Origin: a virus
Length of the DNA stretch: 5,686 nucleotides
IMG/VR virus record: IMGVR_UViG_3300045988_002953
Span: 1 to 5,686 of that record
Strand: one strand, 5' to 3'
Shown here: positions 1-5,686 of the stretch, one piece after another
How the letters are laid out: each line of letters opens with the position of its first letter
Numbering within the stretch: the stretch's first letter is position 1
Notes under the pieces: model-generated
The model's database searches: none
The model's input: the letters and a program-made list of their open reading frames with translations, nothing else
What the model was told of the DNA's origin: nothing
Made by a program: the position numbers and the translations under genes

Positions 1-77
1 CTAATTTGTCTTTCCAGTAGTTTCCGAAGTTGCTGCCGATGTACTGATTGTTCTTAGGCGTTGTTTCGGCTGCTGTG
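1..77. repeat. Left copy of a 77-bp exact direct terminal repeat (identical to 5610..5686). This is the overlap of a circular genome assembly; unit length is 5,609 nt.
   Basis: Base-by-base comparison: ctaatttgtctttccagtag...ggctgctgtg is identical at both window ends. A single ORF (VP2) reads continuously across the implied junction. Confidence 0.95.
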
Positions 78-841
78 TCTTTTTTTGCTTTGTTGTCACT
101 TGTTTTTTTGCCGCTGGTGTTGTTTTGGTTGAGCCATCCGGTTAAGTCTGGAAAGTCCGTTTGATAGCTGTTATAACCGCTACTGTGCTGCTCTCCGTGC
201 GAGTCTGTCCATGACCAGCTTTCCGCTTTGGTCTTGCTGTAGTTTGCTACTGTGCCGGAGATCGTCGGCATACTGGATGACTGCGTCCCGACGCTTGGCG
301 CGCTTATGCTGCTCTGTCCAATGGTCCCTTGTGCTCCGCCCGGTGTGCTTGCTCCGCCTTGCTGGTATGCGAGTATTGGATTCAACCCCGCTTTTTTCAT
401 GTCGGCCATTGCTCTTTGGTAGCTCGTGTTGCTCATACGCTCTTGCCATGCCCTGTTAGCCGCCGCTTCTGCTGAGTTGTAGGACATCGTTGCATCCTGC
501 TGGATGCGATTATAAACGCCCTGCTGGATAGCTCCCAGAGTGTTTAAGCCCAGTGCCATGAGAGAGTTCTTATCGTTTTGCTGACTCTGCATTCCTTGCG
601 CTTGTTGACTTTGCCCCAAAAAGTATTTGGCGAGTTCTTTTGTTTGGTCAACATTTACGCCGCTTTCGCCGGTCATTGTTGACCCGCTTGCGCCTTGGCT
701 TGTCTGGTATCCGCTTGAGCTTGTTGCTCCGCTGCCGGATGTGCCTTTGAGTGCGTTGAATATGCCTGTTCCGGTGTTTATGAGTGTGCTCACGCCGCCC
801 AGTAATTTTGCGCCTGTTGCTAGTGCTGCTAAAAGTGACAT
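1..841 (-). CDS. VP2: DNA pilot / minor capsid protein VP2 (phiX174 H analogue), 5' portion. It starts at ATG 841..839, runs off the left edge and continues on the circle at 5609..5596. Total length is 284 aa.
   Basis: Manual translation of the minus strand gave no stop over 280 codons: [26 protein letters not shown]...[35 protein letters not shown]...NYWKDKL. SD AAGGAG lies at 848..853, 6 nt before the ATG. A G/S/T/Q-rich N-terminus followed by an (N/E)RxxSxTxYQRxxxDxKxAGLNP-type core is what I recall for Microviridae VP2. The ORF is absent from the track only because it crosses the window edge. Confidence 0.88.
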
Positions 842-862
842 TTTTTTCTCCTTTACAAGAAT

Positions 863-882
863 AGCCGGGTTTTGACCCGGCT
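863..882 (-). terminator. Stem-loop in the 46-nt VP1-VP2 intergenic gap. Candidate partial terminator/attenuator or mRNA stabiliser.
   Basis: agccgggt (863..870) pairs perfectly with acccggct (875..882) around a 4-nt loop. In minus sense it sits 5 nt after the VP1 stop and is followed by AUUCUUGU, an imperfect U tract. Confidence 0.45.
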
Positions 883-887
883 TTGTA

Positions 888-2549
888 TTAGTGATGGTCG
901 ATGAGTCCCGGAATGGAGTACACCGGCATACACCGCGTTGTCTTGTTCATGAAGTAGAAGTCTGCAATAAAGTCCGGCTGAGCCTGTACCGCAAGAGTCC
1001 GCTTCATTTCGGCTTCGCCCTGTTCCATCCAAGCCGTGCTCAGTGTGGGAAGCGCGTTGTAGTCCTGTGCATAGTGCCATGCATCGAGACTTTGTTGTGC
1101 GTTGCTTCTGAACAGTCCGGTAACCTTGCTCGGCTTATACCGATAGTCGGCCCATGCTTCCTGATAGCCGAATGCTTCATCGTCCTTTGTGTTGCCCTGT
1201 GCATAGATTTCTTTGTTGAGGATCGCTTGTTCGCCGATGTTTGCCAGTACCGGCCAGTAGTAATCATATCGGCCTTTGCGGCTCCACATGCGTTCGATAC
1301 CCTGCTGATAGGTCTGGTCGGTGCGGACGACTGCCAGACCCATGATGAGACCATGCTCAGTAAAGGACTTGGTAAACATAGGTTTGTTCATGGTGGTTAC
1401 ACTCAACGCCGCTGTGTTGCCCAGCGGACTCGTGCCGTCGGTCGAAGAGGTCTGGATAACCTGAGACACGTTGATAGGCAGTCTGTAGCCGCCCAGATAT
1501 TCCGGAATCTGCATACGAGAGTCAGGAGAGATAACTCCGAAGTGCTCGCGCAGTACCTCGCGGTATCTCGTGCCGCCGCGTGCGTCTTTTTCCAGCAGTT
1601 TCTGAATCTGGAATGCCTGTCTCAGCTGGTTGATGGTTGCTGCTGTTACTGCTCCAAGGTCTGCGCCGATGTATGCGTAACTGCTTGTTTCTTGCGTTAC
1701 CGGGTTTCCAAAGCTGTATCCGCTTTTTGTTGCTCCTCTCATCCTTGCGTCTGAGCTTTCGCTCTGGATTAAGCCCGCTTCGTTCCCTCCCCATGTCCAG
1801 GGACTGCTGTAGGTATCGCCTTTTTTGATGGACGTTGCCGGTTTTGTCATTTCTTCGTCGAGATATGTTTTGATTGGCGCGTTACCGCTCAGCGGTATGG
1901 TGATCGGCTCGCCTTTCTGAGGCTCCGGCAAAGCTCCGGTGTAGTAGTCAAACACCTTCGCTGCCTTGAGAGGCTTTGCCAACGTGATAGCGCTGTCATT
2001 GGTAGCGCTGCCGTCGTTTTTGCCGGTCGTGGTTGCGTCTGTTACCTCTACGAGTGTCGGCTGCGTGACGTTTTGGTTTCTGAACCATTCGTTGTAGATG
2101 AGGCCGTATGCTCGACCGGGCAGAGCGCTCACGCTGATGCCCTCGACTTTGGTAGGCAGTCCCAGATAGTCCGCCAGCGTACCTTCCGCCCATCCGCCTG
2201 TCGGTGCCGTCACTTGCGGCACACTGTACTCCGTCTTAGGTGTCCATGCGGTTTCTTTGTTCTCGCCCATAAACTCCTTCCAGTGTTCCCATAAGAGTCG
2301 GTTTGGCACGAAAAAGAAGTAGAAATCACAAAAGGCGTTGTCCATCACCGGGAAGATTGGTGTTGCCATTCGCATCACACACGCAACATCGACTTGGTGC
2401 GTATCACCCGGTAATACTTCATCCAGATAAATCGGGATGAGTTCGCCGGTGTTAAAGGTGGTTTTGTTGTCACTGTTGCGCTGGAATCTGCTTCGGCTTA
2501 CTCCTACTTGTGGATTCTGTGCAAAGTTGTATTCACTGTTGCGGTTCAC
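888..2549 (-). CDS. VP1: Major capsid protein VP1 (F-protein family), 553 aa, GTG start.
   Basis: The N-terminus [50 protein letters not shown] is the hallmark Microviridae VP1/F motif (SRSxF...HKTTF..G.L.P....EVLPGDT). The size is typical of gokushovirus VP1. SD AAGGAGG lies at 2557..2563, 7 nt before the start. The start codon reads GTG (2549..2547). Confidence 0.97.
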
Positions 2550-3022
2550 TCTGCTTCCTCCTTTTTCTCTGTTGCGTTTTTAGCCGGCTTTTCTTCCTTC
2601 AGGAGTCCCATTTTATCGGCCCATTCTGTCGTGCCGTAGGCCATGACGTATTTTTCCACGTCGTTGTCCCATTTGTTTTTGATTTCGATAGGCAGCTTGT
2701 CAAACTCCGCTTCCGCGTCTTTGATACGCCCATACCACTCGTGGTAGTTTGTCGGCGCGTCCGAAATATCGGTCATCGTCTCGCTGGTCTGCCAGTCCTG
2801 ACTGCCCAGTGCAGTCGGGTCATACGTTGCCCGCTTGATGATGTTTTCGATTTTGGTTTCATCCAGACGGCTCTGGATGAGTGCATAGACGTCCGTTTCT
2901 CCGGTTTTTACCAGCTCCCGGCCTTCTTCCGTTACCTTGTACTCATACTCAGGTTCATGGCCGTTGCCGGTCAGGCTCGTATGCCTTACCTGCCCGCTGT
3001 ATGCGCTCCTAAATTCACTCAT
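2546..3022 (-). CDS. VP3: Internal scaffolding protein VP3, 158 aa (internal start of the 231-aa track ORF).
   Basis: The start is ATG 3022..3020, with a GAGGG SD about 8 nt upstream. Sequence: MSEFRSAYSG...AEAEFDKLPIEIKNKWDNDVEKYV...[16 protein letters not shown]. The FxxLPxEI(R/K)xKFxNDxExF-like block and acidic tail match my memory of gokushovirus VP3. The 73 codons upstream in the track ORF are S/R/T-rich junk that overlaps ORF80 in another frame. Confidence 0.8.
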   Translation of the reverse strand: MSEFRSAYSGQVRHTSLTGNGHEPEYEYKVTEEGRELVKTGETDVYALIQSRLDETKIENIIKRATYDPTALGSQDWQTSETMTDISDAPTNYHEWYGRIKDAEAEFDKLPIEIKNKWDNDVEKYVMAYGTTEWADKMGLLKEEKPAKNATEKKEEAE

Positions 3023-3257
3023 TGGGCTTGCCCTCACATACGCACGTGTTGACGTTATCGACGATTTCGCCTGTCTCGTCCTCCATGGTGCAGATGTAGT
3101 GCAGCCGGAAGTCTTCCGGCTTGACGCTGATAAAGCTGTCCTTGTTCTTCTGCTGGCTTTCGAAGAGCCTGCTTGCGACTGCGTCGTTCTGTTGTTCGAA
3201 GAGTCCGCTATAGCTCTTGGCCACTTTGTCGTAAATTGCATAGTATCTTTTCAGCAT
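3015..3257 (-). CDS. Small non-structural protein, 80 aa, function unknown (possibly VP5-like).
   Basis: The ATG 3257..3255 shares one base with the upstream TAA (TAATG). The stop overlaps the VP3 start (ATGAGTGA). Composition is coding-like. The N-terminus MLKRYYAIYDKVAKSYSGLFEQQNDAVASRLF resembles, from memory only, small 'nonstructural' proteins annotated in gokushovirus genomes. Confidence 0.7.
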   Translation of the reverse strand: MLKRYYAIYDKVAKSYSGLFEQQNDAVASRLFESQQKNKDSFISVKPEDFRLHYICTMEDETGEIVDNVNTCVCEGKPNE

Positions 3258-3376
3258 TACAGTCTCGTGCCTCCTCGCATGTTTTTCGGGCTTACGTTGA
3301 CGGCCTTGGTTTTCTTTGCCGTCTGGGTAAACACTTTCGTGTCTTTCGACTTTTTGACCTTACTCCGCTTCGCCAT
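3257..3376 (-). CDS. Small basic DNA-binding/packaging protein (phiX174 J / chlamydiaphage ORF8-like), 39 aa.
   Basis: The internal Met of the 90-aa track ORF gives MAKRSKVKKSKDTKVFTQTAKKTKAVNVSPKNMRGGTRL. It has 13 K/R in 39 residues. The C-terminal MRGGxRL matches the conserved end of gokushovirus J-like proteins as I recall them. SD AAGGAG lies at 3385..3390, 8 nt upstream of the ATG at 3376. Confidence 0.8.
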   Translation of the reverse strand: MAKRSKVKKSKDTKVFTQTAKKTKAVNVSPKNMRGGTRL

Positions 3377-3587
3377 TGTTGATTCTCCTTCTGATTTGTT
3401 CCATTTCAATGTCTTTCGCAAAAGCCTTTTTGCGGAATGCCATATCGATGTAAAACTTGGCGTCCTCGATTGTGGCGGCTTTGCATACATGTTTGTACGT
3501 TGTTTCGATTTCTTTGTAGGTTCTTGCAAGCATTTCTGCTAGTGTTTTGTCGGGCTGGTCTCGCACATTCCATGTTTTGGTCGTCAT
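3360..3587 (-). CDS. Hypothetical protein, 75 aa, probably helical.
   Basis: ATG 3587..3585 is preceded by SD AAGGAG (3593..3598). The 3' end overlaps the J-like gene start by 17 nt. I recognise no family. Confidence 0.7.
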   Translation of the reverse strand: MTTKTWNVRDQPDKTLAEMLARTYKEIETTYKHVCKAATIEDAKFYIDMAFRKKAFAKDIEMEQIRRRINNGEAE

Positions 3588-3745
3588 GGTTACTCCTTCG
3601 GCTGGTTGCCTTCTACTGCGTGGTAAATCTTATCCAGCATGGCTAAGATCTTGCGTATGTTGTTAAACAGCGCGTTAATCTCCTTGAAGGTCAGAGCGGT
3701 TCACCTCTTTCTAAAAATTATTTTGTATAAATGTTTTTGTAAAAT

Positions 3746-3759
3746 AGCACTTCTGTGCT
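3746..3759 (-). terminator. Weak stem-loop after ORF59.
   Basis: The minus-sense sequence is AGCAC-agaa-GTGCT followed by AUUUUAC. The stem is only 5 bp. Confidence 0.25.
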
Positions 3760-3771
3760 GTTTAACCTTGT

Positions 3772-3951
3772 TTATTGCTCTACCCAATTTTCCGGGTCGA
3801 GTGCTGCCGTTGTGCCTAGCAGCTCTTTATTGATGCGGTAGCATCCTCCATTGCTCTGGTTAATAACGTATCTGTATTTTGCGGTATCGTAGGAGCCGAT
3901 TTCTTCTAGCTCCCTCAAGGCTTTGACACTCAGACGATTGATGGTATTCAT
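3772..3951 (-). CDS. Hypothetical protein, 59 aa. It is the first gene after the promoter and falls below the ORF-track size cutoff.
   Basis: Manual translation: MNTINRLSVKALRELEEIGSYDTAKYRYVINQSNGGCYRINKELLGTTAALDPENWVEQ*. An SD-like AAGGGGG (3959..3965) lies 7 nt before ATG 3951..3949. Base composition is balanced and coding-like, unlike the AT-rich flanks. The gene sits about 18-20 nt downstream of the predicted transcription start. Confidence 0.55.
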   Translation of the reverse strand: MNTINRLSVKALRELEEIGSYDTAKYRYVINQSNGGCYRINKELLGTTAALDPENWVEQ

Positions 3952-3975
3952 CTCTATACCCCCTTCTTTATCTGC

Positions 3976-4004
3976 ATTATACCACAGATTTTTCGATTTG
4001 TCAT
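3976..4004 (-). promoter_or_regulatory. Near-consensus sigma70/sigmaA-type promoter with an extended -10.
   Basis: The minus strand reads ATGACA (4004..3999), a 17-nt spacer, then TGG-TATAAT (3984..3976). That is 5/6 for the -35, a perfect -10 and a TGn extension. An A/T-rich tract (AAAATAAAAAGTTTCAGAAAA) lies upstream. It faces ORF59 and the whole gene chain. Confidence 0.6.
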
Positions 4005-4113
4005 GAGGTTTTCTGAAACTTTTTATTTTAGGTCATGTGGTAGGCGCGGTGCGCCGTGCGAAGAGCATGACGCAACTTTTCGGTTTCGCTCGCCGGACGG
4101 CCTTTATTTGCTT

Positions 4114-4140
4114 TTTCAACACTTTCAACACTTTCAACAG
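4114..4140 (+). repeat. Three tandem 9-bp repeats: TTTCAACAC, TTTCAACAC, TTTCAACAG.
   Basis: Read directly: 4114..4122, 4123..4131 and 4132..4140. Confidence 0.95.
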
Positions 4141-4141
4141 G

Positions 4142-4150
4142 TTTTCCACA
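4142..4150 (+). promoter_or_regulatory. DnaA-box-like 9-mer TTTTCCACA (8/9 to TTATCCACA).
   Basis: It directly abuts the third 9-bp repeat. It shares the TCCACAAAA extension with the perfect box at 4206. Confidence 0.45.
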
Positions 4151-4187
4151 AAATGTTGCACAAAGGTTTTTGTGTATATTGCTACAT

Positions 4188-4205
4188 TTTCAACATTTTA
4201 ACAAG
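4188..4205 (+). repeat. Further repeat units TTTCAACAT plus a degenerate TTTAACAAG.
   Basis: Read directly, in the same orientation as the other copies. A further variant, ATCAACA, lies at 4220..4226. Confidence 0.8.
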
Positions 4206-4281
4206 TTATCCACAAAAATATCAACATTAAAATAATCCAAAAAATATCGTTCCAAGGATAAAAATTCATAGTATTCAACAT
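4198..4281 (-). CDS. Speculative 27-aa hydrophobic peptide, MLNTMNFYPWNDIFWIILMLIFLWITC.
   Basis: SD AGGGAG (4289..4294) lies 7 nt before ATG 4281..4279, and the stop is TAA 4200..4198. The reading frame is built from the repeat units and the DnaA box themselves, so it may be a by-product of those motifs. Confidence 0.2.
   Translation of the reverse strand: MLNTMNFYPWNDIFWIILMLIFLWITC
4206..4214 (+). promoter_or_regulatory. Perfect consensus DnaA box TTATCCACA.
   Basis: It is an exact 9/9 match to the classical DnaA box. It has the same orientation as the 8/9 box 64 bp upstream, and both are followed by AAA(A). Confidence 0.5.
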
Positions 4282-4289
4282 TTCAACAC
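4272..4289 (+). repeat. Two more tandem 9-bp repeat units: TATTCAACA, TTTCAACAC.
   Basis: Read directly. This brings the count to six perfect TTCAACA cores within 4115..4288, all in one orientation. Confidence 0.9.
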
Positions 4290-4293
4290 TCCC

Positions 4294-4308
4294 TACTACT
4301 ACTACTAC
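4294..4308. repeat. (TAC)5 microsatellite.
   Basis: tactactactactac was read directly. Confidence 0.95.
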
Positions 4309-4313
4309 AACAA

Positions 4314-4341
4314 GTTATATATAATAGATGATGTTTGTAAA
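4314..4341 (-). promoter_or_regulatory. Second, weaker candidate promoter.
   Basis: The minus strand reads TTTACA (4341..4336), a 16-nt spacer, then TATAAC (4319..4314). Both hexamers score 5/6. It would transcribe through the repeat/DnaA-box array. Confidence 0.3.
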
Positions 4342-4382
4342 TACACGTGCGTGCGTGCGCGTTTCGCGCGTGCGTGCGCGTG
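4341..4382. repeat. GC-rich alternating purine-pyrimidine tract containing a 13-bp direct repeat CGTGCGTGCGCGT (4350..4362 and 4369..4381).
   Basis: 4341..4362 (22 nt) and 4365..4382 (18 nt) alternate Pu/Py perfectly and are separated by TT. The central GCGCG-ttt-CGCGC (4357..4369) can form a small hairpin. Confidence 0.9.
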
Positions 4383-4405
4383 AGCGTAATTGAGCCTATG
4401 ATTTG

Positions 4406-4435
4406 CCTCGTACCTCGGTAGCCCCTACGAGGGGC
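4406..4435. other. Two mutually exclusive hairpins.
   Basis: The first is CCTCGTA (4406..4412) paired with TACGAGG (4426..4432) around a 13-nt loop. The second is GCCCC (4421..4425) paired with GGGGC (4431..4435) around a 5-nt loop. They share bases 4426..4432. Confidence 0.5.
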
Positions 4436-4443
4436 GTACACGA

Positions 4444-4484
4444 AAGGGGTCTCCCGTGGCGACAGGAGACCCTTTCTTGTTTTT
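4444..4484. terminator. Strong GC hairpin with flanking A and T tracts (intrinsic-terminator-like).
   Basis: GGGTCTCC (4447..4454) pairs with GGAGACCC (4465..4472), extendable by A-T/G-T pairs at 4444..4446 with 4473..4475. On the plus strand it is followed by TTTCTTGTTTTT. In minus sense (downstream of rep) the U tract is only CUUUCG. Confidence 0.5.
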
Positions 4485-4526
4485 ATGATGCTTTTAATTA
4501 GCCGTGGATAGCTATGAAACTTGGGT

Positions 4527-4563
4527 GTGGGCCTAATCCTCTTCTTGACAGGATTAGGCCCAC
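4527..4563. terminator. 14-bp perfect-stem hairpin whose stem begins 10 nt after the rep stop.
   Basis: gtgggcctaatcct (4527..4540) pairs perfectly with aggattaggcccac (4550..4563) around a 9-nt loop, cttcttgac. There is no good U tract in either sense, so it may be a structural ssDNA element rather than a classical terminator. Confidence 0.45.
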
Positions 4564-4572
4564 TGACACCAT

Positions 4573-5595
4573 TTAGAGAATCCCTCTTGCTTTACTAAAG
4601 CGTTCTCTGAGATTCTTTTCCTTAATTTTTCCTTGCTCTTCGATAGTTACGTCTGTGTTTGACATCTTGACTTTAAGTGCATTTATTGCACTTGACTGTC
4701 TTTTTTTTTTAATCTCCCACAGCCTTTTGGGATTTTCAGCTTCTTGCATCTTGTCAAAGTACCTTGGAATGGGCCTTTTTTTGCCGTTAAAATATAATCC
4801 ATCGTCTTTGTACATTTGTTCTTTGTGCTCTTGGTAGTAGTCGTATCCTAGACCCGGATTTCGTGACATGCAGCAGTAAGGCGCTGGTAGCCCTAGCTCA
4901 TTGTATCGTTTTGTGTCGTTGCCGTAGGCTTTTTTTGTCACATATCCCGCTACATACGCCATTGTTTCCGGTGACGCCTCTGTAATTATCACATTGCCCA
5001 TTCCCCAGATTTTGTCTATTGTTTCGCTCTCAAAGTATGGATTATTGCCTCTTTTTTTCTTTAGGTCTGGTATTTCTAACCCATAATAGATTGCATGGTG
5101 ATGCGGTCTGCCTGTGGTTTCGCCGTATTCGCCGCAATAAAAATATCTGAGGTCTGTACCCCATTTATCGGACATTTCTTGCTTTTTTCGGAGTCTTTTG
5201 TTAAAAAGTACCATGTCCTCTTGCAATAGGATTTGCACAACTTCTGGTGCGTCTCCCGTTGTCCACTGGTGTGTTGCTCCACGTATAAGTTCGCCTGTTG
5301 CTCTTACCATTCCTGGCACGTACTCTTGATTCCACGTCAGGGTTAAAAACCATACTGGTGACAGTGTTTTTGACTCCATCAGCATCCTTGTCTCCCAATC
5401 CTGCCGCTGTCTGAGTCTGCATCCCAGACATTTGCCACATGGCAGTAACATCACGTCTGTTCTGTACGCGATGCTTTCATACGTTGCTTTTGGATTGTGC
5501 GCCCTTTCGCGGTACGTCTCTAAGGTCATGATTGACCCTGTTATGTTATGGTTGTTTGGGTTGTATACTCTGATAAGTGGTCTTTCACAGCTCAT
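4573..5595 (-). CDS. VP4: Replication initiation protein VP4 (HUH rolling-circle endonuclease, phiX174 A analogue), 340 aa.
   Basis: It carries a Cys cluster LPCGKCLGCRLRQRQDW, motif I FLTLTW, the HUH motif RPHHHAIYYG and the catalytic Tyr motif YVAGYVTKK. SD GGAGG lies at 5603..5607, 7 nt before ATG 5595..5593. The ATG directly follows the VP2 stop (TAAATG). Confidence 0.95.
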   Translation of the reverse strand: MSCERPLIRVYNPNNHNITGSIMTLETYRERAHNPKATYESIAYRTDVMLLPCGKCLGCRLRQRQDWETRMLMESKTLSPVWFLTLTWNQEYVPGMVRATGELIRGATHQWTTGDAPEVVQILLQEDMVLFNKRLRKKQEMSDKWGTDLRYFYCGEYGETTGRPHHHAIYYGLEIPDLKKKRGNNPYFESETIDKIWGMGNVIITEASPETMAYVAGYVTKKAYGNDTKRYNELGLPAPYCCMSRNPGLGYDYYQEHKEQMYKDDGLYFNGKKRPIPRYFDKMQEAENPKRLWEIKKKRQSSAINALKVKMSNTDVTIEEQGKIKEKNLRERFSKARGIL

Positions 5596-5686
5596 TTATT
5601 TACCTCCCCCTAATTTGTCTTTCCAGTAGTTTCCGAAGTTGCTGCCGATGTACTGATTGTTCTTAGGCGTTGTTTCGGCTGCTGTG
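5596..5686 (-). CDS. VP2: 3' end of VP2 (...[24 protein letters not shown]), with stop TAA at 5598..5596.
   Basis: This is the same frame as 1..841 when 5610 is equated with position 1. Bases 5610..5686 duplicate 1..77. Confidence 0.88.
   Translation of the reverse strand, partial: TAAETTPKNNQYIGSNFGNYWKDKLGGGK
5610..5686. repeat. Right copy of the 77-bp terminal direct repeat.
   Basis: It is identical to 1..77. Confidence 0.95.

Follow-up and report, generated by a model that had tools for sequence, protein, structure and literature searches.

Introduction

Why should a small single-stranded DNA (ssDNA) phage carry putative binding sites for DnaA, the chromosomal initiator of its bacterial host? 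The replication of the Microviridae is taught from phiX174, in which Rep nicks the DNA and copying proceeds as a rolling circle, with no part for DnaA. In this article, I will consider the question for a gokushovirus (Microviridae) represented by IMG/VR record IMGVR_UViG_3300045988_002953, of which positions 1 to 5,686 were analyzed (the whole stretch, hereafter the window); these 5686 bases represent a circular genome of 5609 nt whose ends overlap by 77 nt, and the element in question lies in a 620-nt noncoding region between the stop of the Rep gene (4573) and a 59-codon open reading frame (ORF; 3951). The original prediction, made from the letters of the window alone, had pointed to two DnaA boxes in this region, a perfect TTATCCACA at 4206-4214 and an 8/9 match, TTTTCCACA, at 4142-4150, and both are present as claimed on the plus strand, in the same orientation and with AAAA directly after each. 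Its chance estimate for an exact 9-mer also holds (2x5609/4^9 = 0.04 expected). Under the relaxed consensus TTWTNCACA there are 2 sites versus 0.43 expected, and since 13 of 200 shuffles likewise reach at least 2, the two boxes alone are only marginally significant and were set aside as a signal in their own right.

The answer that I favor, at a probability of roughly 0.7, is that 4113-4340 is an oriC-type DnaA origin cassette: ten boxes in the dialect of the host, the last two of which, together with a gap, DnaA-trios and AT-rich DNA, would form a basal unwinding system (BUS) opened by host DnaA. The DnaA-box reading is greatly strengthened by what accompanies the boxes, namely the trios, a gap that keeps its length, AT-rich DNA and the recurrence of the same architecture in bacterial dnaA-dnaN intergenic regions. 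The noncoding region was aligned with 16 GenBank relatives and then with 79 IMG/VR genomes (counts over 80 genomes use the latter alignment set), and in this comparison with related microviruses, one of the checks proposed at the outset, the box cores proved to be conserved in the intergenic regions of the 80 genomes.

A putative unwinding element at the core

As published, a BUS consists of a DnaA box (usually a tandem pair), a short gap averaging 4 bp, at least three DnaA-trios (3'-GAT-5') and AT-rich DNA (PMC8287927). The box lies within two mismatches of the standard motif of the species and 0-16 bp upstream of the trios (PMC8287927; Pelliciari et al., 2021) and reads 5'-TTATCCACA-3' on the strand carrying 5'-CTA-3'; the trios are at least three consecutive 3'-[G/A]A[T/A]-5' units, with GAT most frequent beside the box, and a second, adjacent tandem box is the most frequent arrangement (PMC8287927). 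Table S1 of that paper and the oriC of Escherichia coli, which fits the same geometry, served as the reference. The most conserved block in every phage genome, 4272-4327, reads TATTCAACA / (A)TTTCAACA / CTCC / CTACTACTACTACTA / CAACAAGTTATATATAATAG in the window, and its parts and the DNA behind it are as follows.

4272-4280 and 4280-4288, plus strand: proximal tandem boxes TATTCAACA and ATTTCAACA, 8 bp apart start to start
4289-4292, plus strand: 4-nt gap CTCC from proximal box to trios, equivalent of the GC-rich/gap region of a BUS
4293-4307, minus (coding/viral) strand: five DnaA-trios, (CTA)5 on the plus strand being 3'-GAT-5' five times
4308-4340: AT-rich stretch, the presumed unwinding element, with 21% GC versus 48% in the genome and opening with the invariant CAACAAGTTA

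In Table S1 (PMC8287927), the Bacillus subtilis element is given as 3'-AATAGGTGT/TTAGGTGT/CCGG/GATGATAATGAAGATGAT-5', which on the other strand becomes 5'-TTATCCACA/AATCCACA/GGCC/CTACTATTACTTCTACTA-3', and the window reads 5'-TATTCAACA/(A)TTTCAACA/CTCC/(CTA)5/CAACAAGTTATATATAAT-3', with strand, 8-bp phasing of the tandem boxes, 4-nt gap and 12-bp spacer all matching (the spacer being that of Staphylococcus aureus too). The two proximal boxes are thus placed as the positional equivalents of DnaA-box#6/#7 in the BUS of B. subtilis oriC incC (work of Richardson and Murray; PMC6669920, PMC8287927, PMC10721633), and the likeness includes the order of the parts, the orientation of the boxes, at least three perfect GAT trios (five in the phage), the AT-rich stretch and the presence of boxes upstream (7 in incC, 10 in the phage). 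Measured against the published definition, box orientation and spacers (12 and 4 bp) agree, the second tandem box is there, 8 bp away as in box#6/#7, and the gap, the run of at least three trios and the AT-rich DNA are all found. What differs is the location, since the phage element adjoins Rep in a 5.6-kb ssDNA genome instead of occupying a chromosomal oriC, typically between dnaA and dnaN; in addition, most of the phage boxes have the C6-to-A change, only the phages have the invariant CAACAAGTTA behind the trios, and the function in the phage is predicted. Among published forms, the Clostridioides difficile trio is printed as 5'-CACCTACTACTATTACTACTAT-3' in BUS work, and TTTTCAACA, a sequence that recurs below, is listed in the published table (PMC8287927) as a box or as the standard motif of a species.

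The pattern of conservation follows this division closely. At least 90% conservation across the 80 genomes is seen for the boxes, for trios 1-3 and 5 and for CAACAAGTTA, and spacers, gap sequence and trio 4 vary; trios 1-3 are invariant, trios 1-3 and 5 taken together are at least 99% conserved, and trio 4 is free (CTA, CGA, CGG, CTC or CGT), an interrupted pattern that is also seen in host oriCs. The gap measures 4 nt in 128 of 133 contigs while its sequence changes. To judge from these alignments, selection acts on the grammar of the module, and a comparable BUS arose in only 2 of 5000 shuffled genomes. The proximal boxes of the window are each one mismatch from the host-type motif TTTTCAACA and three from TTATCCACA; most relatives have TTTTCCACA as a proximal box, one mismatch from TTATCCACA, and among the 142 contigs listed the proximal box is TTTCCACN in 73 and TTTCAACN in about 57.

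One array of ten boxes

The two boxes first noticed belong to an array of ten TTTC[A/C]ACA units, all on the plus strand, found only within 4113-4288 and grouped 4+4+2, the last pair being the proximal boxes already listed.

4113-4150, plus strand: distal cluster, four units with 9-bp phasing, box cores at least 80-90% conserved in 80 genomes
4113-4121, plus strand: TTTTCAACA, distal unit
4122-4130 and 4131-4139, plus strand: CTTTCAACA, two distal units
4142-4150, plus strand: TTTTCCACA, the 8/9 box, distal unit; relatives L002 and L008 have TTTTCAACA here
4157-4178: palindrome TGCACAAA-N-TTTGTG(T/C)A separating distal and middle clusters; other cassette variants carry different palindromes there
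4187-4226, plus strand: middle cluster, four units
4187-4195, plus strand: TTTTCAACA, middle unit
4195-4203, plus strand: ATTTTAACA, degenerate middle unit, ATTCAACA in the majority of relatives
4206-4214, plus strand: TTATCCACA, the perfect box, middle unit; the majority of the 80 genomes have TTTTCAACA here
4218-4226, plus strand: ATATCAACA, middle unit

The original prediction had treated the repeats (TTTCAACA) as a separate array with which the boxes were interleaved, and this was a misreading. A repeat finder returns each of the two boxes as the 3' half of a 22-nt repeat (TTTCAACAGGTTTTCCACAAAA and TTTTAACAAGTTATCCACAAAA) and TTTCAACA(C) as itself tandemly repeated, and at no fewer than five aligned repeat positions some genomes carry TTTCAACA and others TTTCCACA; since relatives exchange CAAC and CCAC at aligned positions, boxes and repeat array are one element. 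Over the 80 genomes, the core TTC[C/A]AC occurs 34 times per kb in the forward direction inside the module versus about 0.5 per kb elsewhere (a 75-fold enrichment), forward cores outnumber reverse ones inside it by 708 to 20 (35:1), and the median module has nine units.

Between the middle and proximal clusters, at 4243-4266, stands a conserved motif that is not a box (…CGTT…AAGGATAAAAA, majority form TAACGTTTTAACGTTAAAAA) and could be the site of a second factor. A reading of TGTTGAA as a 0A-box for Spo0A was dropped: the conserved G of TGNCGAA is absent, and the evidence for a DnaA origin superseded it.

The same element in bacterial chromosome origins

If the phage element is an origin of chromosomal type, then a pattern taken from the phages alone should lead back to chromosomes, and it does. 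The pattern TTCMACNTTTCMACNNNNNCTACTACTA (20 fixed bases) was scanned against the genomes of 185,579 species, where arithmetic predicts about 4 matches, and returned at least 120 bacterial ones, in large chromosomal contigs. Among the matches listed, 92 of 120 are preceded at close range, on their own strand, by the Walker-A or domain-IV signature of DnaA. Pfam searches on a subset placed DnaA upstream (two loci of two) and the beta-clamp DnaN downstream (three of three); flanked in this way by dnaA and dnaN, the phage-derived pattern is therefore the element of the chromosomal dnaA-dnaN origin, and the bacterial matches likewise run into AT-rich DNA.

The dialect of the boxes narrows the field further. 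Both proximal boxes are of the CAAC type in 12 origins among the matches listed, all of them from Clostridia and mostly from Oscillospiraceae, the remainder belonging to Ruminococcus, Eubacteriales, Faeciplasma and Schneewindia, and the intergenic regions of these hosts hold same-orientation arrays such as CTTTCAACACTTTCAACA that mix TTTCAACA and TTTCCACA as the phage does. Comparison of these origins indicates that CAAC-type boxes are a native chromosomal form in gut Clostridia, and because Oscillospirales use such boxes in their own origins, the host of the phage is likely a gut member of the Clostridia from that order. The dnaA-dnaN origins of gut Clostridia (Oscillospiraceae L170 and L197, Ruminococcus L149 and L201, Eubacteriales L182 and Clostridia L244) share with the phage this dialect of TTTCAACA plus TTTCCACA, the core (for example GATTCAACATTTCAACAGCCCCTACTACTACTACTA in L197) and the same-orientation box arrays upstream. 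The window is 92-94% identical to the origins of L197, L201, L244 and L182 over 34-39 nt; beyond this core there is only low-identity collinearity of about 65%, so direct capture is not demonstrable and capture and convergence are not separable. A captured piece of a host origin was, of the four roles that the original prediction proposed, the one closest to the evidence, with the proviso that mimicry would look the same. On the side of the protein, the DnaA of one CAAC-type host (L170, an Oscillospiraceae metagenome-assembled genome) has GRNHSTM in its DNA-binding domain where most have RDHTTV, a substitution that could lie behind an altered box preference.

A portable cassette

At least 142 microvirus-size contigs carry the cassette, and when the host-BUS pattern was run against the viral collection, the matches listed were almost only of microvirus size. 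Among database entries, the phage is most closely related to 'Gokushovirus WZ-2015a' and to Microviridae sp. from the faeces of human, pig, dog and monkey. The BUS was not found in the reference gokushoviruses Chp2, phiMH2K and SpV4 or in a Bullavirinae phage, which makes it a trait of this gut gokushovirus group and not of the subfamily or family. Some IMG/VR contigs of 20-40 kb (L258, L259, L296, L297, L310) also carry a host-type BUS with box arrays, the explanation for which may be host oriC, through mis-binning or as DNA flanking a prophage, or else mobile elements of another kind; a contig of 10.9 kb (L305) holds two microvirus genomes and is probably a chimera or concatemer. MG945199 (L330) was considered as a relative lacking the module and rejected, as the record is partial and ends at the module. 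That it stops exactly at the module edge is an observation in its own right: a repeat-rich cassette may break assemblies and could be under-represented in databases.

Within the group, the module goes its own way. Phages whose Rep and capsid are only 42-45% and 48-50% identical to those of the window can have a module that is 92-94% identical, and others with a Rep 94-95% identical have one that is only about 70% identical; module identity is decoupled from protein identity, and the cassette does not track Rep. Three arrangements occur: downstream of Rep and antiparallel to the genes, as in the window (A), between VP2 and Rep, parallel and about 90 nt before the Rep start (B), and downstream of Rep and parallel (C). 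In two pairs of phages with nearly the same Rep (L022, of type C, versus L031, of type A, 95.9% identical; L095 versus L052, 95.0%), a block of 212-214 nt is cleanly inverted between collinear flanks, which projects onto the window as follows.

About 4113-4324, either orientation: portable cassette, the segment inverted between L022 and L031 and between L095 and L052

With only 76-80% identity between partners, the inverted block falls below its flanks (85-95%), so that a simple flip will not account for it and the block must have been replaced, and the distribution of cassette variants independently of Rep and capsid phylogeny implies frequent recombination at the locus. The complete genome KT264799 (L332) is a natural minimal variant: at 3472-3600 it retains the AT-rich stretch, five trios, the gap and the proximal pair of boxes and nothing else of the cassette, other sequence having taken the place of the distal arrays, which leaves a 'basal' unit. 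At the level of sequence, what can be regarded as established is a DnaA-unwinding-element grammar that is under selection, independent of Rep lineage and strand, and written in the dialect of gut Clostridia.

How the cassette would work

On the double-stranded replicative form, host DnaA-ATP would bind the boxes through its domain IV, the two proximal boxes would steer an oligomer of DnaA onto the strand with the trios (here the minus strand), and the oligomer would melt the adjacent AT-rich DNA (4308-4340); we infer these three steps from a grammar identical to that of validated origins. The host replicative helicase would then be loaded and the replicative form copied theta-style, independently of a strand-specific Rep nick, which seems the most likely downstream purpose. 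The less likely one is that opening aids the access of Rep: the cassette stands in either orientation beside the same Rep and keeps a complete BUS, which makes theta-type copying likelier than the exposure of a strand-specific nick site. Carried further, and here I am distinctly tentative, the cassette might be a working miniature oriC, at which host DnaA would start, and the host replisome carry out, theta-style copying of a replicative form that behaves like a minichromosome. The phage could then persist in the manner of a plasmid, in a carrier state linked to the cell cycle of the host, with the HUH Rep serving only to make single strands for packaging; the portable module would be swapped between distant phages, its box dialect reporting the host.

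Several points weigh on the other side. The proximal boxes of the window, at three mismatches from TTATCCACA, exceed the published limit of two and come within it only if the host-type motif TTTTCAACA is taken as the standard. That CAAC-type sequences are DnaA boxes at all is deduced from their position in host origins and from DoriC motifs, and the phage copies all belong to a single evolutionary family and, however many, do not count as independent evidence. B. subtilis oriC requires more than its BUS for full function, and autonomous theta replication from 212 bp is for that reason not assured. Finally, the Microviridae replicate by Rep-dependent rolling circle, and DnaA is not known to play a role in them.

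Other explanations

An alternative that is unlikely, while being the strongest of those considered, holds that DnaA binds the array without unwinding it, either as a sink comparable to datA that titrates host DnaA and delays host initiation, or as a transcription factor that couples Rep and the early genes to host replication. A sink would be served by ten boxes in each genome, multiplied by the copy number of the replicative form, and a regulator would be well placed in arrangement B, where the cassette precedes the Rep start so closely, as well as by a strong sigma-70-type promoter on the gene strand 110 nt from the array and a weaker promoter-like site with the perfect box in its spacer. 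That weaker site, though, relies on a TTTAACA specific to the window and is not conserved, and neither a sink nor a regulator needs trios in the right strand and phase, a fixed 4-nt gap or an invariant AT-rich block. The cassette, besides, inverts relative to the genes, and KT264799 retains just two boxes plus trios. Transcriptional coupling and titration, both offered in the original prediction, may be added roles of an origin, and as sole explanations they leave the trios, the gap length, the AT-rich block and the two-box variant unaccounted for.

The first option of the original prediction was that the locus primes the complementary strand on incoming ssDNA, a hairpin holding a DnaA box in duplex and nucleating an assembly of the ABC-primosome type. 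The ABC-primosome A site of Masai and Arai reportedly has such a box in an ssDNA hairpin; both replicons have an ssDNA stage, and one box of the window can indeed sit in a stem, since TATCCACAAAAA (4207-4218) pairs with TTTTTGTGTATA (4167-4178) at 11 of 12 positions, the perfect box lying in the stem in both minimum-free-energy and centroid folds, and the trios of arrangement A are on the viral strand. But the fold of the virion-sense strand that had been called for goes against it: the module is not more stably folded than shuffled sequence (z = +1.67, and 194 of 200 shuffles match its stability), and the perfect box is in a weak stem in the window alone. Across the 80 genomes only 41 of 702 boxes (6%) are fully paired and 48 genomes have none paired, reverse-orientation boxes are as scarce as stated above, the stem-forming spacer is replaced by unrelated sequence in other cassette variants, and relative to the viral strand the cassette can point either way. 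Unlike the A site, then, the phage has a stem that is not conserved in a region that is unstructured, no box held dependably in duplex and a cassette indifferent to orientation, so that as a conserved feature ssDNA priming finds no support here, and I consider it very improbable.

I would give equally little credence to a double-strand origin specific to the phage Rep, in which the repeats would be iterons of the HUH Rep (comparable to the pMV158 bind locus or to geminiviruses) and the nick site would lie in (TAC)n/CAACAAGTTA. It is true that the cassette always adjoins the Rep gene and that TACTACGAC in some relatives resembles the pMV158 nick and a viral-strand AACTTG the phiX174 origin. The repeats do not co-vary with Rep, however, and Reps that are 95-96% identical stand beside cassettes of opposite orientation, where a nick site would fall on the wrong strand; the same grammar, moreover, sits between chromosomal dnaA and dnaN, where no phage Rep exists. 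The two nick-like candidates were rejected, being on opposite strands, incompatible with cassette inversion and unaccompanied by a phiX origin, the core of which (CAACTTGATATTAATAAC) is unmatched in the phage at up to three mismatches. Neither the Rep-co-varying iterons nor the fixed-strand nick site of a pMV158/geminivirus origin is thus found. The phiX174 origin comprises 30 nt within gene A and is nicked by gpA, and although phiX174 belongs to the same virus family and has a homologous class of Rep, the present cassette has no sequence match to that origin and is intergenic, repeat-rich and orientation-free. Plasmids and phages such as pSC101, P1 (oriR), RK2 and F have, besides a small number of DnaA boxes, a distinct set of iterons that serves their own Rep. 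With the phage they share host DnaA boxes beside an AT-rich region in a mobile replicon, and they differ in that every repeat of the phage is a DnaA-box variant, the trio element is of chromosomal type and no part of the cassette co-varies with Rep. Such mixed origins of DnaA boxes and initiator iterons have been reviewed (PMC4980987).

The weakest proposal, that the 34-39 nt of 92-94% identity to host origins serve as a homology patch for recombination with, or integration at, host oriC, is hardly credible, as the patch is too short, the genome encodes no integrase and microvirus capsid or Rep genes occur in 0 of 120 bacterial oriC loci among the matches listed.

Implications

An oriC-type cassette of this kind is a known element in what appears to be a new place, since an exchangeable cassette of this type in an ssDNA phage has no counterpart in the searchable literature, where no paper was found that ties microviruses or gokushoviruses to DnaA boxes, oriC or DnaA-trios. 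The sequences suggest that a whole group of gut ssDNA phages recruits the host chromosomal initiator DnaA. If so, a very abundant group of human and animal gut phages (at least 142 genomes with the conserved element) would make use of the master initiator of the host, and the persistence of microviruses in the gut, which has long been noted, would gain a testable mechanism. The box dialect, matching Oscillospirales origins, would become a sequence-based clue to the host for phages of uncultured bacteria, and the poorly tractable Clostridia would gain a compact natural origin cassette of 212 bp. The phages would also provide an independent natural test of the BUS model, in which selection kept box, box, gap, trios and AT-rich DNA and let the rest drift.

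Genome setting and further observations

All long ORFs are on the minus strand, and the classification as a rolling-circle phage in the original prediction was right, the genome encoding the following proteins.

5595-4573, minus strand: Rep (PF23343, REP_ORF2-G2P, phrog_942)
2549-888, minus strand: major capsid protein F (Phage_F), by family match
Minus strand: scaffold protein (Chlamy_scaf), by family match
Minus strand: Phage_ORF5, by family match

The ORF at 3951-3772 (minus) encodes 59 amino acids and has no family match, with homologues 55-80% identical in L078 and L091; it is preceded by a near-consensus promoter, ATGACA-17-TGgTATAAT (11/12; 4004-3976, minus), and a strong Shine-Dalgarno site, and strong sites of this kind are consistent with a Firmicute-type host. 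AT skew is strong and uniform genome-wide (plus strand T-rich, coding strand A-rich) and disappears across 4001-4600, and no V-shaped GC skew was found over the whole genome; being uniform, skew was discarded as an indicator of replication mode.

A third box of the original prediction, a reverse 7/9 copy (CGTGGATAG, 4503-4511), exists in the window, but only 1 of 11 close relatives keeps it and it was therefore dropped. A small RNA running from a TATAAT at 4320-4325 to a hairpin was also discarded: the promoter scan gave no -35, the hairpin at 4447-4472, which resembles a terminator, gets its score on the minus strand, as that of Rep, and Rfam returned for the candidate only a spurious snoRNA match below threshold. 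Lastly, beyond the AT-rich stretch and outside the inverted cassette lies one more feature.

4342-4390: GC-rich (65%) block of alternating purines and pyrimidines, (CGTG)n, with an imperfect hairpin and prone to form Z-DNA

A similar GC-rich block follows the AT-rich stretch in most relatives of types A and C.

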